IMG/VR virus record: IMGVR_UViG_3300037153_000324 | Coordinates: 10,374 to 74,373 of that record | Direction: 5' to 3' (one strand) | Source: a virus | DNA length: 64,000 nucleotides | Part shown: positions 9,755 through 44,272 of the stretch, piece by piece | Layout: each line of letters starts with the position of its first letter | Numbering within the stretch: the first letter of the stretch is position 1 | Notes under the pieces: generated by a model | Seen by the model: the letters and a program-made list of their open reading frames with translations, nothing else | What the model was told of the DNA's origin: nothing | Database searches by the model: none | Made by a program: the position numbers and the translations under genes

Positions 9755-10551
9755 TGCTAGGTGTAAAGAAAGCCAAATTTCAGAAACAGTCTAGGGGTGA
9801 GTACCCGGAGTATCCTCCGGGTGAAATCGTGATTCCTTGCAATGATCTTGCTAGGTATCACAATTTCACCTACGACTTCAGACTCTTGGACGTGCCAGAT
9901 GGAACAGTCATTTCGATGACTCGTTCTGCTTCGGTGGTCGAGAATTTGAATTTAGCGATTCGTTCGCTGAACAACAATTCGGAATGGGTCTGGATCATGG
10001 GTGACGATCATGCTTTCGGGCGTGACACTCTCATGAAATTGCTGAAGGTGCTGTATGAAAACGATTACAGCATCGTCGTGCCTCTCTGTTGTCGTCGTGG
10101 CCCGCCATTCGGGCTTGTTGTTTTTGACGAGGAGCGAGATGAGGACTACCTTGGGCGAGGGCAATTTCACACGATGCAGTTTCCTGATTTGCCGAAGAGT
10201 GGTCAGTTCGAATGCATAGCCGCTGGCTCTGCTGGAATGCTCATCAACCGAGGCGTTTTTGATGAAATGGGTGAGCCGTGGTTCGAAAATTCGGACAATA
10301 TTACAACGAACGAGGACGTTGTATTTTGCAAGAAGGCTCGCGCACTCGGACATAAAGTGATGGTAGACGTTGACACACGAATCGGACACATCGGAGTCGT
10401 TGGAGTCTGGCCTGACTATCGTGACGGGCAGTGGGGGATTACGCTCGATTTTCAGGGCGTTGGGCAGAACCACATCTTCCTCGCGGGCGGCATCCGGGAA
10501 GGAAATAACGGGGCACCCGAGCCTCGAACTGGAACCCTCGATTGGGAGTGA
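9754..10551 (+). CDS. Glycosyltransferase family 2-like
   Basis: WVWIMGDDH (DxD-like), AAGSAGMLINRGVF, NEDVVFC..AR..G.KV.VD..IGH. Confidence 0.8.
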   Translation: MLGVKKAKFQKQSRGEYPEYPPGEIVIPCNDLARYHNFTYDFRLLDVPDGTVISMTRSASVVENLNLAIRSLNNNSEWVWIMGDDHAFGRDTLMKLLKVLYENDYSIVVPLCCRRGPPFGLVVFDEERDEDYLGRGQFHTMQFPDLPKSGQFECIAAGSAGMLINRGVFDEMGEPWFENSDNITTNEDVVFCKKARALGHKVMVDVDTRIGHIGVVGVWPDYRDGQWGITLDFQGVGQNHIFLAGGIREGNNGAPEPRTGTLDWE

Positions 10552-37256: not shown

Positions 37257-37568
37257 GTGGCTCACGATGCTCCGCACGGACGACAGAAGTCATCGAAATT
37301 AGTCAAGAAGCCGCATGTAACCGAGCAGACGAAATTTGACCTTTGGTTGTCCCAATGCATGAATGACGGGACGCCTGTAATTGTCACTTTTTCGCTCGAT
37401 CTACAACCGATTTTGGGCGTTAGGACAACTCCTTGTTGGGTGCTCGTTGTTGACCGCTATTTTGTCCAATTGGAGCTTATCGATCTGTTCGAAAAATTCG
37501 GTGCCGGTGGTAATATCTTCTGGTTTCCGAAAGACGTTCTCAGGGCGGTTTCTCTTGCAATTTCATAG
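37257..37568 (+). CDS. Hfq/Sm-like protein (putative)
   Basis: D.WL....D.TPV.V.F / VDRYFVQL / WFPKDVL.AV aligns by eye to Hfq DPFL...VPVSIYL / FDQFVILL / VYKHAISTV. Confidence 0.5.
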   Translation: MAHDAPHGRQKSSKLVKKPHVTEQTKFDLWLSQCMNDGTPVIVTFSLDLQPILGVRTTPCWVLVVDRYFVQLELIDLFEKFGAGGNIFWFPKDVLRAVSLAIS

Positions 37569-37820: not shown

Positions 37821-38063
37821 TTGGCTGAAAAAACCAAAAAATCGCAGCCTTCTGCGGAAAAACCAATTTCAATCACTTTCGAAAACAAATTTCACAAGGA
37901 GCTTGAAAAAACCCTTCGCCAGTGGTTCGAAAAAAACGGGCAATTTTCAAAAAACGGCCTGCAAATAGAGTACGACTTTCGCGGACGGAAAAATTCCGTT
38001 TCGCTTCGCGTAATTGGACGACCCGGACAAATTCTCGTTCGCAAATGGAAACAAGGAACCTAA
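37821..38063 (+). CDS. Hypothetical protein
   Basis: GGAGGAG SD, TTG start. Confidence 0.45.
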   Translation: MAEKTKKSQPSAEKPISITFENKFHKELEKTLRQWFEKNGQFSKNGLQIEYDFRGRKNSVSLRVIGRPGQILVRKWKQGT

Positions 38064-38127
38064 TTCGCTGTTTTCAAATTTGGCAACTAGACAGAGCAGG
38101 GAACAAAGCGATAAGCAAGGAGATGCC

Positions 38128-39465
38128 GTGAGCGTCGAGAGCTACGTTATTTCAGCGTTGGTCGAGGAGGGATCGCCCAAAAAGGCTTTTTCCGAAGGCG
38201 TGAACGAAAGCGACTTCGAAATCTACGATGAGGAATTTCGTTGGATCGTAGATCGAGCCGAGAAGCGTAAGCCAGTCACCCCTCGAACATTCAAGGATGC
38301 GTTTCCGGATTTTGATTTCATCATCCCGAGGGAGACGCTTCCGGATCTGCTGGACGAATTGAAACAGGAACGAGCCTTTGTCTCGATTTCAAGTGCCATC
38401 GAGGAAGTCATTGTTGACCTGACCGCTGAGAATTCGCTTCGGAAGGCCGAGGAGCTACGTGAAATTCTCGGGGACGTTCTCCGTACGCATGCCGCGCATA
38501 GCGACGTGCTCATCAAAGCCGGTTGGCGCGATCATCTGAAACGAGTTAGGGATCTTCAGATACTTCGGGAGAATGGTGAAATTGCTGGAATCCCAACTGG
38601 CATCCTTCATTTCGATCAATACTGGGGCGGGCTGCAAGGGGAAGCCAGCTACCTGATTCTCGGACGGCCGGGTGATGCTAAGAGCTTTACCCTGGCGAAA
38701 TTCACGACAGAGGCAGCCTGGCAGGGATACCGTGTCGGTTTCTTTTCGCCCGAGATGACAGAGCATCAGCATCAGTGTAGGTTCCACACGCTTCTCTCTG
38801 CCAAATCTGAAATTCAGCAGGAGTGCAATCTCAAGGGTGCATTTCCCAACCGAGCGCTCAAGGATGGGTTCGGCTTCAACCTCAAGACGTACAAGCGCTT
38901 CCTGGAATATCTCGACAATTCGATGAAAGGTGAAATTTGTCTGTTTACGCGCAAATATCGGCGTGAGCGAATGACGACGAGCTACATCGAGTCGCGGGTG
39001 GAAGAGCTAGGGCTGGATCTTGTAATTGTCGATCCGCTCTATAAGCTGAAAGCGCCACGGCACAGGGGTACGAAGTGGGAGGAGCTTTCCGAGCTTACGG
39101 ACAATCTCACGAATATTGCGCATGCATTCAACATTCCGGTCATAATGTCCAATCAGGCGACGAGAGCGCTCGTCGGATCGAGGGGCGACCCGCCTGGTCG
39201 AGACACAAGCTTCGGATCGGATGCACCTGTGCAGGAGGCAGACGTTGTATTTGGCGTTCGCCATCACTCTGACGAGCGGATAATGAAAGTTGCCTGCTCA
39301 AAGAATCGGCATGGTGAGCCATTCAAGTTCACCATGAAATTCTTGCCCAACAAAGGTGTGATGGAAGATGTGACTCCTTTGTATGGCGAGTACAAGAACG
39401 GGTACGATCCTGAGATAGCTGAAGAGCTACGTGTAGCTATGCGAGAGGAAAATGAAAATGACTGA
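38128..39465 (+). CDS. dnaB: DnaB-like replicative helicase
   Basis: GIPTG, GRPGDAKS Walker A, FFSPEM, LVIVDPLY, SNQ, SDAPVQEADVV, KNRHG. Confidence 0.9.
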   Translation: MSVESYVISALVEEGSPKKAFSEGVNESDFEIYDEEFRWIVDRAEKRKPVTPRTFKDAFPDFDFIIPRETLPDLLDELKQERAFVSISSAIEEVIVDLTAENSLRKAEELREILGDVLRTHAAHSDVLIKAGWRDHLKRVRDLQILRENGEIAGIPTGILHFDQYWGGLQGEASYLILGRPGDAKSFTLAKFTTEAAWQGYRVGFFSPEMTEHQHQCRFHTLLSAKSEIQQECNLKGAFPNRALKDGFGFNLKTYKRFLEYLDNSMKGEICLFTRKYRRERMTTSYIESRVEELGLDLVIVDPLYKLKAPRHRGTKWEELSELTDNLTNIAHAFNIPVIMSNQATRALVGSRGDPPGRDTSFGSDAPVQEADVVFGVRHHSDERIMKVACSKNRHGEPFKFTMKFLPNKGVMEDVTPLYGEYKNGYDPEIAEELRVAMREENEND

Positions 39466-40149: not shown

Positions 40150-40416
40150 GTGCCTAGGGATTTGCGTGATCCTCAAGCGATAGGTCACTGGTTTGCCGAG
40201 CTTCGGGAAGCGCATCCCAACATGAAGGCGCATCAAATTGCTGACTACATTGACAGCGAAGTAGATGTGCTGAATTACACCGAATTGGAACAGACGATAG
40301 GCCAAGAAACTGTAATTCGATATCGCAGTGAGCTTTTCGAGCGTGCTGAGCAAGGGGATAGGTACGCGAAGTCGAGGCTCGATGGGCTTGCGTTCGAGGA
40401 GCCTAGCGACGGATGA
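40150..40416 (+). CDS. Hypothetical protein
   Basis: GTG after AGGAGG. Confidence 0.45.
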   Translation: MPRDLRDPQAIGHWFAELREAHPNMKAHQIADYIDSEVDVLNYTELEQTIGQETVIRYRSELFERAEQGDRYAKSRLDGLAFEEPSDG

Positions 40417-41513
40417 ATTACAAAGGTAGGAATATTGACCCGTTGAGCGTGTGGGATCGCTATGTCGAATTTCCGCCAGGGATCGACGCCGATAAGTCGA
40501 TGTTTCTTCCACTAGTTCTGTGCCCAAATCCTGAACATGACAATTCTCGCTCACCTGCATTTCAGATCAATACGACTGCGCCGCTTGTACATTGTTTCGC
40601 TCACTGTGGAATTTCAGGCACGTACGATCATGCCGTGGCGATGATCGAGGGTTACTACGATGACCTAAAGGTGGATCTAGGTGAAATTGACAGAATCCGG
40701 CAGAAGTCGGTAAAGGAGCGCTCGCGTGCGGAGCACGATAAAGTGGCTCGCTATTTCAGAGCGCAGCGAAAAGCAAGCAAGCTCATTCTTCGAGGCTCCA
40801 CTCGCTCCAAATTTTCTCGAAAAACCAGTGCCAGGAAAACGCAGGAAAAGAAATCCCAAATCAAGATCGACCTGAACTTCGACACTTTCATTCCGCAGAT
40901 CGGCTTGGAATATCTCGAAGGCCGAGGAATTACAGCAGAGTCGATTGCGCGGTGGGGGTTGGGCTGGCACCCTGACGAGAAGCGGCTCGTTATTCCAGCG
41001 CACGATGACAGGGGTACGCTCAGGTTTCTGATTCGGCGGGCGGTGAAGGATTCCCAGTGGCCCAAGTACCTGTACAGTGAGGGCTACCCCAAGACTTCCC
41101 TGCTCTTTGGGGGGTTGCAAACTGACCTAGGGATGGTACAATCCCGTGGACTGATCCTCGTAGAAGGGAGTTTCGATACGATCAAGCTTCACCAATACGG
41201 ATTGACGTGCGCAGCGGCCATTCTTGGCACAGGAATTTCACCCGAGCAGATGCGCATAGTGATGAAATTGAGGCCCAAGCGAATTTTCCTCATGTTCGAC
41301 CGCGATACGGCCGGTGTCACTAATATCTCGCTCGCAGCGAAATTGCTTGCCAGGAAATATCCGCTGTTCGTGTGCCGATATCCCAGGGGAAAATTCGATC
41401 CGGCCGAGCTAGTGAAGAAGGAGGCGTGGAATTCATTGATGAGAGCAGTGCCCTATTCGTTATGGAATAGGAAATCGAGACGGCCCGAATCGTCTCTAAC
41501 CGAAAGGAAATAA
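40413..41513 (+). CDS. DNA primase (Zn-binding domain plus Toprim)
   Basis: CPNPEHDN.RSP...HCFAHC; YL..RGI; LVEGSFD; MFDRDTAG. Confidence 0.9.
   Translation: MNYKGRNIDPLSVWDRYVEFPPGIDADKSMFLPLVLCPNPEHDNSRSPAFQINTTAPLVHCFAHCGISGTYDHAVAMIEGYYDDLKVDLGEIDRIRQKSVKERSRAEHDKVARYFRAQRKASKLILRGSTRSKFSRKTSARKTQEKKSQIKIDLNFDTFIPQIGLEYLEGRGITAESIARWGLGWHPDEKRLVIPAHDDRGTLRFLIRRAVKDSQWPKYLYSEGYPKTSLLFGGLQTDLGMVQSRGLILVEGSFDTIKLHQYGLTCAAAILGTGISPEQMRIVMKLRPKRIFLMFDRDTAGVTNISLAAKLLARKYPLFVCRYPRGKFDPAELVKKEAWNSLMRAVPYSLWNRKSRRPESSLTERK
41115..41142 (+). promoter_or_regulatory. Promoter inside the primase gene
   Basis: TTGCAA-N16-TACAAT with extended -10 TG. Confidence 0.55.
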
Positions 41514-41514
41514 G

Positions 41515-42654
41515 TTGGCGAGGACAAGAGAGAAGTTTCAGATTCGCCGCGTCAAGTCGAAAGAGGATCGCAAGCGGCCGTCTGTTTTCATGCGATTGAA
41601 AACGGATGAGGCGTTCAAGGGTGTGGCGTTGTTCGAGCCAGATCCCGAGTTGGACGACAACCCCGGCTATTTCGAGTATTACGACCACTGGGATCAGCAG
41701 GGGCAACAGTACGTCCCTTGTGCGGGTGAAATGTGCCCCTTCTGCAAGGCGAACGACAATCCTTCGACTCGGGCAATGACCGTCTGGTATTTCCCTGAGG
41801 CGGCAGACGTGAAAGACCAGATCAAGGTTTTCACGATGAATTTCAGCACGATCAACGACATTACCGACGAGGCCGAGGAAGAGGACGGCTTGATCGGTAA
41901 GAAGGTGCGCATCAAGCGTCTGTCCGACAAGGGCGATTACAAGGTGCGCGTGCTCACCGAGAAGGGCCTGACCGAAACGCAGTTGAAAAAGGTCATGGCT
42001 CGTCTCGATGAAGTGTTCCCTGACGGTCTGGAAGGCATTACGCTCGCACAGTTGAAGCGTCAGATGGAGCGCTTGCGTGCTCTGGACGAGTTGGAGGACG
42101 ACGACGAGGACGACGAGCAGGACGAGCAGCCCAAGGCTCGCCGTGGTCGGGCAATTTCAAAGGACGAGGAAGAGGACGAAGAGGAAGAGGACGACGAAGA
42201 GGAAGAGGACGAAGAGGAAGAGGACGACGAAGAGGACGAAGAGCCGACCGACGAAGAGGACGAAGAGGAGGAAGAGGAGGAGGACGACGAAGAGGACGAC
42301 GACGAGGAAGAGGACGAGGAAGAGCAGGAGCAGGCTGAAATTACAGCGGCCGAGTACGAAGTTCTCAAGTCGAGCGAGCGTGACGACACGTTCGAGTTGC
42401 AGAACGACGAGGGCAAGGTGAAGATGTGGCTCGGAGAGAACGTCGAGGTTGACTACGACGAATTCCCGAAGGGCACGCCTGTCACCGTCTCCGCGCTTCA
42501 GGACGACGAGGGCGATTGGATCATCACTGAAATCAAGGTGAAAAAGCGTCGTGGTCGTCCGCCTGCGTCCAAGGCCAAGACGCGGACAAGCCGCGCAGCC
42601 TCGTCTCGTTCCAGCGGTTCGACTCGCGGCCGGGGTAGGCCGCGTAAGCGGTAA
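41515..42654 (+). CDS. ssDNA-binding protein (gp32-like) with acidic tract, extra OB-like domain and AT-hook tail
   Basis: HW...C...CPFC Zn core after the primase; long E/D tract; RRGRPP and RGRGRPRKR. Confidence 0.65.
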   Translation: MARTREKFQIRRVKSKEDRKRPSVFMRLKTDEAFKGVALFEPDPELDDNPGYFEYYDHWDQQGQQYVPCAGEMCPFCKANDNPSTRAMTVWYFPEAADVKDQIKVFTMNFSTINDITDEAEEEDGLIGKKVRIKRLSDKGDYKVRVLTEKGLTETQLKKVMARLDEVFPDGLEGITLAQLKRQMERLRALDELEDDDEDDEQDEQPKARRGRAISKDEEEDEEEEDDEEEEDEEEEDDEEDEEPTDEEDEEEEEEEDDEEDDDEEEDEEEQEQAEITAAEYEVLKSSERDDTFELQNDEGKVKMWLGENVEVDYDEFPKGTPVTVSALQDDEGDWIITEIKVKKRRGRPPASKAKTRTSRAASSRSSGSTRGRGRPRKR

Positions 42655-42659
42655 GGAAA

Positions 42660-43008
42660 TTTCCACTTCGTGAACGATCAGGTTGTAACGGGCAAGCGTG
42701 GTAGTGAGCGGACTGTCGGTAAGGGCTTGGCGGTTTGCTCGCGTGCTACCACAAGGAACACCGTTTCGGCGGTGCCTGCTTCTACGGCAGTTGCGTTTGG
42801 GCACTGTGCAACCCTGCCCCTAAGTGAACCCGTGCGGAGTGGAAAATACATTCGGGCGGTGCGCTAAATGCGCGGCGTTATCGCCCGGATTCCAGGGAGT
42901 GTGCGCGTTCTTAGCGGTCACGCAGCCGCCCTGGAAAGCCGGGTGGGGAAGGGAATTTCCCTCTAGGGTTTCAACCCCTCTAGTGCGGAAGTCTCCGCCC
43001 CACCCGGT
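42660..43008 (+). ncRNA. Candidate large structured ncRNA 1
   Basis: Nested long stems with many G-U pairs, a UUCG loop and multi-way junctions; no credible ORF. Confidence 0.6.
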
Positions 43009-43049
43009 AATTGATTTGGCCCGAAACAACAGAAAGGAAATAAACGCGA

Positions 43050-43382
43050 ATGACATTGCCACTTCTAACGTCCGCTCAGCTTGTCGAGGAAATTGCCGAG
43101 GATACGGGCTATTCCAAGTCCGATGTGCGGCATTTCATGGACTCGCTGGCGCGGGCGATCACGGATCATGTTTCCGATTGTGAGAGAGTCAGGATTGGGA
43201 ACCTCGTCCAGATCGAGCCGAAGTTGAAAAAAGCACAGAAAAAGCGGATGGGTCGGAATCCGGCTACAGGTGAGGACATTGAAATTGCTGCCAAGCCAGC
43301 GAGTGTGCGCGTAGGTGTTCGGCCACTCGCTGGCTTGAAGGACGCGATGCCGTCCGTGCAGAAGCTTAGGAAGCGAGTCTGA
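43050..43382 (+). CDS. HU family DNA-binding protein
   Basis: IAEDTG.SK.DV; RMGRNPATGE.I.IAAKPA. Confidence 0.95.
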   Translation: MTLPLLTSAQLVEEIAEDTGYSKSDVRHFMDSLARAITDHVSDCERVRIGNLVQIEPKLKKAQKKRMGRNPATGEDIEIAAKPASVRVGVRPLAGLKDAMPSVQKLRKRV

Positions 43383-43383
43383 A

Positions 43384-43656
43384 ATGTCCAAGCTGACCAA
43401 GTACACCAAGGACAAGCAAGCGCTGTCGTCCGTTTATGAATTTCCAGGTCTGATTAGCGGTTGGAATGTGCGCATTCAGGCGAACCACGGTTCAGTTTCA
43501 GTTCGCAAAAACGGGACGACTGTTCTAACCATGACACATCAGGAAGCTGAAATTCTTGGTGAGGTACTGGTAGATGCAGCAGAGGACGGTCGGCGTCGAA
43601 TCAGGAAGATCGAGAAGAAGAGAAAAAAGAATGCTGTCAAAACGCAAGTAGCTTGA
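43384..43656 (+). CDS. Hypothetical protein
   Basis: ORF directly after HU. Confidence 0.5.
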   Translation: MSKLTKYTKDKQALSSVYEFPGLISGWNVRIQANHGSVSVRKNGTTVLTMTHQEAEILGEVLVDAAEDGRRRIRKIEKKRKKNAVKTQVA

Positions 43657-43659
43657 AAT

Positions 43660-44055
43660 TTGGCACTCCGAGGCAGGAGACGCACTGACGGAACGGCATG
43701 GCCTAGCTTGACTGGGCCTACGGCTACACGGAACGGTAGTCCCAGTGCGATTCGAGAGGGGAAGGCGTGGTACGAACCAGCGACGTGCGCACGGTAACTG
43801 GTGAGTGGTAGGAGTGCCAATGAAATTGCCTCGGCCGGGGGTATCTTGGCGGCAGGATGCCGGGGCAAGTTTGGGGTCAGGTTCCGACGATTCCCTCCGT
43901 TCCCTCACGTTTCGGTGGGATGGACGTAAGTGAAAAAGACGGCCCATAGCCATGACGCCCGTCTAATCAGCCTGGCTCCAAGAGTCTGCTCTGGCCTTGC
44001 GGCGCTAGAGCAGCATGGGGGCGCTCCTAACGAGGGTGGGGGCGCTCCCTTTTTT
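43660..44055 (+). ncRNA. Candidate large structured ncRNA 2, ending in an intrinsic terminator
   Basis: Consecutive closed domains (10-13 bp stems); final GGGGGCGCTCCT/GGGGGCGCTCCC hairpin plus T6. Confidence 0.6.
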
Positions 44056-44068
44056 CAAGGAGATGCGC

Positions 44069-44272
44069 ATGAAGAAATTAGCTGAATTGACAAATGCCAC
44101 AAAAGCGCAGCTAGTAGCGTTCATCAACACGGCTCTCGTTCTGATTGTTTCGTTTGGGATTACGTTGAGTGATGCACAGACCGCTGCAATAATTTCGTTT
44201 GTGAACGCCGGTCTTTCTCTTTGGATTGCCATGACGTATCGTGATAGCCCAAAGCGAATTTCAGATGAGTAA
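44069..44272 (+). CDS. Holin-like two-TM protein
   Basis: LVLIVSFGITLSDAQTAAII motif like actinophage holins; AAGGAG SD. Confidence 0.55.
   Translation: MKKLAELTNATKAQLVAFINTALVLIVSFGITLSDAQTAAIISFVNAGLSLWIAMTYRDSPKRISDE

Follow-up and report, generated by a model that had tools for sequence, protein, structure and literature searches.

In E. coli, the REP325 hairpin cluster of the yjdMN operon limits transcriptional read-through and makes the message upstream of it more stable (bioRxiv 10.64898/2026.03.23.713779). The E. coli HU protein binds hairpin-rich REP325 RNAs (PMC4550694), with an affinity described as moderate in the later study (bioRxiv 10.64898/2026.03.23.713779). Elements of a comparable kind occur in phages. 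The RNase III sites of T7 and the mRNA-stabilising hairpins of T4 and lambda are formed on the transcribed strand and punctuate polycistronic messages near highly expressed genes. Much larger are GOLLD, ROOL and OLE, multi-domain RNAs of phages and bacteria, all of which are catalogued in Rfam and show deep covariation over many genomes.

The locus considered here belongs to a soil phage whose record comprises 74,373 bp with direct terminal repeats and a GC content of 52%; nearly all genes lie on the + strand. The window, that is, the whole 64,000-nt stretch analysed, includes a group of replication genes arranged as follows (window positions):

38014-39465, gene for a DnaB-like helicase
40413-41513, primase gene
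41515-42654, gene for an SSB-like protein
43050-43382, + strand, gene for an HU-family DNA-binding protein (Pfam Bac_DNA_binding, E 9e-18)
43384-43656, + strand, p90, an orphan ORF of 90 aa (only self-hits in two protein searches)
44069-44272, + strand, hol67, an orphan ORF for a 67-aa membrane protein (phrog_9752 'holin', E 2e-7; only self-hits)
44241/44265-47519, gene for a DnaE-type polymerase

The 3' end of hol67 overlaps the start of the DnaE gene. After the HU operon, between p90 and hol67, lies a gap of 412 nt (43657-44068), which contains the block described below; a second gap, of 395 nt, separates SSB from HU (gap 1). The initial annotation had described two RNA-like blocks bracketing HU, and the two gaps do indeed flank HU together with p90. 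The block consists of four stem-closed modules placed side by side (spacing 2-5 nt) and followed by a strong intrinsic terminator:

43660-43820, + strand, domain A: perfect 10-bp closing helix (43660-69/43811-20) and a branched interior with a 7-bp inner helix and three hairpins
43826-43868, + strand, hairpin B: outer helix of 10 bp (43826-35/43859-68, one G-U pair) and inner helix of 6 bp; z -2.2
43870-43982, + strand, domain C: closing helix of 14 bp (43870-83/43969-82, three G-U pairs) around two hairpins; z -1.3
43986-44013, + strand, hairpin D: 10-bp helix (43986-95/44004-13, one G-U pair); z -2.4
44017-44055, + strand, intrinsic terminator: stem of 11-13 pairs (44017-44049), then T6

The p90 stop codon lies 4 nt upstream of the first of these stems (stem A), and the sequence CGCACTG/CAGTGCG (43681-87/43743-49) is nested within domain A together with inner hairpins. 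Every stem listed in the initial annotation, as well as the terminator, is present where it had been placed. Partition function calculations gave each closing helix a pair probability of at least 0.95 over its core, and the centroid of the whole region reproduced the layout originally proposed; the single MFE structure differs from it.

The resemblance to REP325 (a BIME between yjdM and yjdN and the source of the HU-binding naRNA4) lies in the presence of transcribed, adjacent hairpins between two genes of the same orientation. HU features in both cases, as the block ends the HU operon. REP units, however, form a dispersed family of many copies, whereas no 13-mer of the block is found elsewhere in the phage genome on either strand, no second copy of its stem words exists there and the modules are unrelated to one another. 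In addition, REP325 is partly Rho-dependent while the block ends in a canonical intrinsic terminator. The block would work in the manner of REP325 yet falls outside the REP family, since it is unrepeated. Being also absent from GenBank phages and PLSDB plasmids, it was rejected as a candidate repeat or mobile element. Compared with the T7, T4 and lambda elements, which are single hairpins of about 40-60 nt, the block extends over 360 nt as an array that includes two branched domains, and the longest uninterrupted helices in it measure 10-14 bp as opposed to the roughly 20 bp of classic RNase III substrates. GOLLD, ROOL and OLE share with the block the size class, the multi-domain layout and the phage setting, but the block matches none of them and has no homologue. 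Long inverted repeats are also present in the early operon of the same phage, where they enclose small ORFs; the stems of the block are shorter than these, do not surround any credible ORF and are without counterpart among relatives. Long-range stems enclosing HU-p90 or DnaE were considered and discarded, as only imperfect repeats (72-88%) were found, many of them seeded by the word TGAAATT.

Comparison with shuffled sequences showed the energy of the overall fold to be ordinary: the MFE z score of the whole region was -1.1 for the + strand and -0.8 for the - strand, and ensemble diversity fell within the usual range. Domains A and C, with z about -1, folded no better than shuffled sequence; hairpins B and D scored about -2.3 and the terminator -4.4. 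A perfect 10-bp helix by itself arises in 3% of dinucleotide shuffles. What sets the block apart is the number and disposition of its helices. Uninterrupted helices of at least 10 bp (G-U allowed) number five on the + strand versus one on the - strand, and the domain C fold does not form on the latter (z +0.5 there versus -1.3). The tiling by such helices covers 0.96 of the interval 43657-44016, a value reached by none of 400 shuffles (mean 0.45, maximum 0.93); the figure for the - strand is 0.45, and only 0.3% of genome windows attain 0.9 or more. As the tiling measure was devised after the structure had been seen, these figures are supportive and do not amount to a formal test. The asymmetry between strands results from the G-U pairs, whose counterparts on the opposite strand are A-C mismatches, and points to an RNA made from the + strand. 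The structure is real and specific for the + strand, and it is completed by a genuine terminator.

As first supposed, the block encodes nothing. Codon-usage scoring gave no positive value for any frame of either strand, against positive values for every neighbouring gene, and with its 355 nt the block is the longest stretch in the + strand gene block without a + strand frame open for 60 codons. Its GC content is 0.61, to be compared with the 52% of the genome and with 0.48 and 0.44 for p90 and hol67, respectively. A hidden or decayed gene was rejected in view of the lack of coding signal in any frame and of tblastx similarity to relatives. An antisense ORF of 142 aa gave no Pfam match. A 37-aa ORF (43820-43933) is preceded at a distance of 6 nt by AGGAG, this motif and the ATG being located within the 3' arm of stem A; it was dismissed as a gene on the grounds that its peptide is rich in Arg, Gly and Ser and its codon score is that of non-coding sequence.

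In the 74-kb genome, the terminator ranks within the top three of the + strand by strength. The T-run extends to 44055 and the ribosome binding site of hol67 (AAGGAG) begins 2 nt further on, at 44057, with the ATG at 44069. Since the ribosome binding site follows at once, the distance between the T-run and hol67 is too short for a promoter. A scan for sites of the sigma-70 type found none near 43600-43700, at the 5' end of the block. Two promoter-like sites were identified at a distance from it:

41115-41142, + strand, promoter-like site within the primase gene: TTGCAA, 16 nt with CCTAGG in the spacer, TG-extended TACAAT
44165-44193, + strand, weaker promoter-like site within hol67: TTGAGT, 17 nt without the CCTAGG box, TG-extended AATAAT

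The upstream site is one of a small class sharing the CCTAGG motif and a TG-extended -10. At least 12 related loci have a promoter-like match with an extended -10 at the corresponding position, some 350-430 nt ahead of SSB; primase-internal sites were recorded at L003:3031, L010:1295, L021:2355, L022:2531, L023:1597, L024:3116, L026:2285 and L028:1547, some of the relatives having the CCTAGG box in the spacer. The downstream site lies about 70 nt before the DnaE ATG and could possibly act as a restart for this gene; in three relatives, a comparable site is found inside HU, before DnaE. Like the block, gap 1 is rich in hairpins (z -3.9 to -4.0). The arrangement suggests a transcription unit running from about 41150 to 44055 that would include SSB, gap 1, HU and p90, with the block as its 3' tail.

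DnaE has numerous relatives, at 50-66% identity, and about 55 related DnaE loci were collected from IMG/VR, JGI metagenomes and MAG contigs. The order primase-SSB-HU-DnaE is kept in some 50 related phage loci and in four complete relatives. The block, p90 and hol67 are absent from all of these. The same p90, hol67 and DnaE recur on 5-6 near-identical contigs on record, of which one measures 74,235 bp; the relatives compared here are more distant ones. Searches with blastn, tblastx and nhmmer, run on the related loci and on 1.5 Mb of retrieved DNA, detected no similarity to the block, and neither did a DNA search of the four complete related genomes or a covariance model for domains C-D applied to 0.4 Mb of loci from the clade; a scan of IMG/VR for the pattern of stem pairs returned no other record. 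An intrinsic terminator between HU and DnaE was found in 0 of 32 relatives. The interval from HU to DnaE (window 43383-44265; L002-L057) is a hypervariable slot, which ranges from 0 to 2.5 kb and harbours unrelated small ORFs; in some relatives HU abuts DnaE. A conserved element at this place was rejected, the corresponding intervals of relatives being either coding or absent. On the sequences compared, the block, its terminator, p90 and hol67 are a lineage-specific filling of this slot. In a set of 50 distinct related loci, 380 kb in all, just two further non-open stretches reached 150 nt, and in only one relative, L023, does such a stretch follow HU. This is a non-coding hairpin block of 182 nt placed directly after the gene (L023:3719-3900; MFE z -3.5), without sequence likeness to the block of the window. 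Two related phage contigs (L090 and L091) were assigned to MAG bins of Acidobacteria and Gemmatimonadales, weak evidence as to the host; the nearest cellular relatives of DnaE (L092-L169) are from Patescibacteria, at about 30% identity.

Together, these observations led us to view the block as the structured 3' untranslated tail of an SSB-HU-p90 mRNA of about 2.9 kb, which would insulate DnaE and shield the message, an interpretation to which we give an even chance of being right. Transcription would start at the promoter inside the primase gene and proceed through SSB, gap 1, HU and p90; the polymerase would then traverse the four adjacent stem-closed modules and stop at the terminator (44017-44055). 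The terminator would thereby insulate hol67-DnaE from a strongly expressed unit for DNA-coating proteins, and the stacked hairpins would present a barrier to 3'-to-5' exonucleases, making for a longer-lived HU message. The synthesis of DnaE would presumably depend on read-through, on the weaker promoter-like site in hol67, or on both. The boundaries of the transcript, the stabilising effect and the insulation are what we infer from several features: the block is non-coding and GC-rich in a densely coding genome, its tiled helices are confined to the transcribed strand, and a strong terminator followed by a ribosome binding site is found with no promoter-like site at the block's 5' end. Further arguments are the conserved position of the primase-internal promoter-like site in at least 12 relatives, the hairpins of gap 1 and the post-HU hairpin block of L023, and the REP325 precedent. 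Against this reading, the block carries about 350 nt of extra structure, far beyond the needs of a terminator or a 3' barrier, 32 relatives have no terminator between HU and DnaE (HU adjoining DnaE in some of them), and the overall fold energy is unexceptional. Since the block is an orphan, selection on its fold cannot be shown.

The same variability of the HU-DnaE interval, with its changing length and unrelated ORFs, could mean that the block is mostly filler that arrived in the slot with p90 and hol67, the terminator being the only functional part. In favour of this view, p90, the block and hol67 are all orphans, and domains A and C fold like shuffled sequences. We nevertheless regard it as unlikely. 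It is rare for a phage genome to retain 350 nt of filler, and the block is the longest non-open stretch of the + strand gene block; its helix tiling on the + strand was equalled in 0 of 400 shuffles, its GC content exceeds that of the genome by 9 points and that of the flanking orphan genes by 12-17 points, and tblastx disclosed no trace of a decayed gene.

The 3'-tail interpretation also has to be weighed against the idea that the region gives rise to a stable non-coding RNA of about 360-400 nt, either cleaved off the HU message at its 3' end or independently transcribed, and acting in trans through binding to HU or p90 or as a decoy. The modular, stem-closed domains with high pair probabilities, the specificity for the + strand and the raised GC content are all compatible with such a molecule. 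Small RNAs derived from 3' untranslated regions share the terminator of the mRNA, as this one would. The binding of E. coli HU to hairpin-rich REP325 RNAs (PMC4550694) offers a precedent, but the later study of REP325 saw no nucleoid role (bioRxiv 10.64898/2026.03.23.713779). Other findings likewise make a trans-acting RNA quite unlikely. No promoter-like site accompanies the block and the MFE z is only about -1. Rfam 15, including GOLLD, ROOL, OLE, 6S, riboswitches, ribozymes and introns, gave no match at the gathering threshold anywhere in the window, and relaxing the cutoff to E values up to 10 produced a single chance match of 16 bits. No homologue turned up in any search, so that there is no sign of selection on the fold; homologues with compensatory changes, which would characterise a conserved non-coding RNA gene, were not found in the related genomes. 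ARAGORN reported no tRNA or tmRNA in the window. Nor are there tandem repeats of the sort expected for a ToxI-like RNA of a type III toxin-antitoxin system, the sole notable direct repeat being formed by the two arms of the terminator.

A more specific version, in which the 3' end of the HU message releases a stable, lineage-specific RNA of about 360-400 nt that binds the phage HU (or p90) and tunes its making or use, appears improbable on the present analysis. If correct, the released RNA would be the phage counterpart of the E. coli HU-binding hairpin RNAs, and an RNA that is a stable partner of the phage HU would be of greater significance than a message tail. The predicted model of p90 comprises four strands (a beta-meander) and a long basic helix; a fold search with this model gave no informative match and no family was found for the protein. 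With apparent relatives that are chance repeat hits only, p90 was set aside as an RNA-binding partner. An 'Hfq-like' protein had also been put forward in the initial annotation as a partner to be tested, but the ORF in question (37257-37568) matches no Pfam family at E values up to 1. The proposal made there of processed non-coding RNAs co-expressed with nucleoid proteins survives in part: the block is non-coding, its RNA structure belongs to the transcribed strand, a terminator closes it, and it most likely shares a transcript with SSB and HU. The notion of a discrete, processed decoy, scaffold or anti-defence RNA finds no support, given the lack of a promoter-like site at the 5' end, the lack of homologues and the ordinary stability of the fold. 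There is no evidence for the block as an RNA gene; it reads best as a structured mRNA tail.

The position of the terminator directly before the hol67 ribosome binding site, and that of the p90 stop codon next to stem A, evoke a cis-acting attenuator, in which the upstream fold would set the level of read-through into hol67-DnaE. One variant that can be envisaged has ribosomes ending at the p90 stop codon and freeing the 3' arm of A, which would then pair with the 5' arm of the terminator, and the segments 43809-18 and 44020-29 are indeed 90% complementary. However, this alternative pairing has probability 0 in the ensemble and would have to act over 200 nt; relatives lack a terminator at this place and the downstream promoter-like site could serve DnaE. 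An examination of the region as an attenuator or riboswitch leader yielded no other candidate pairing and no promoter within the block. Attenuation seems improbable. An element acting at the DNA level, such as a single-strand initiation site or a replication origin among the replication genes, is in our estimate highly improbable: the location between the primase/SSB/HU genes and DnaE and the one-strand cluster of hairpins recall primosome assembly sites, which are hairpin clusters on one strand, but the block is GC-rich with no iterons or AT-rich tract found, the GC skew makes no turn here, the canonical terminator with its T-run points to RNA, and relatives with the same replication genes lack the block.

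As to its kind, the block is an operon-punctuating hairpin array with a terminator, a known kind of element of which this is a new instance. If the 3'-tail interpretation is right, the phage walls off a strongly expressed SSB/HU unit from the polymerase gene by means of a bulky RNA tail. This solution would have arisen in a single lineage within a hypervariable slot; it would help to annotate phages of this type and would bring no new principle.

A bias in short words, extending over the whole genome, is perhaps a more rewarding lead than the block itself. The word TGAAATT, which precedes stems A and B (43654 and 43821), has 106 occurrences in the + strand of the 74-kb genome and 100 in the - strand, with z scores of 18-26 against shuffles that keep proteins and codon usage; the codon pair GAA-ATT was observed 75 times versus 15 expected. 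Genome-wide, no link between TGAAATT and hairpins was found. The word is evenly spread on both strands and, given this spread and the lack of a tie to hairpins, it says nothing specific about the block. TGAAATT likewise stands before one hairpin of a third non-coding block, GC-rich as well (0.60); this block lies at genome positions 9940-10180 (L170:3941-4181), about 200-430 nt before the start of the window, and forms strong hairpins on the + strand only (z -3.4 versus -0.9). TGAAATT is the top 7-mer in most relatives, others carrying TGAAATC, TGAAAAC or TTGTCAG-like words, and the top words of relatives stand at 20-65 times expectation (related loci including L003, L013 and L021-L026); the bias is absent in unrelated loci. 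The word looks like a DNA recognition word that co-evolves. The tetramer TTAA is missing altogether from the genome (0 occurrences versus about 100-250 expected), a depletion common to relatives, and of the 64 palindromic hexamers 32 occur at most twice, most of them never. Judged from these counts, the loss of TTAA and of palindromes is extreme restriction-site avoidance. The hexamer GAATTC is over-represented 3.7-fold.
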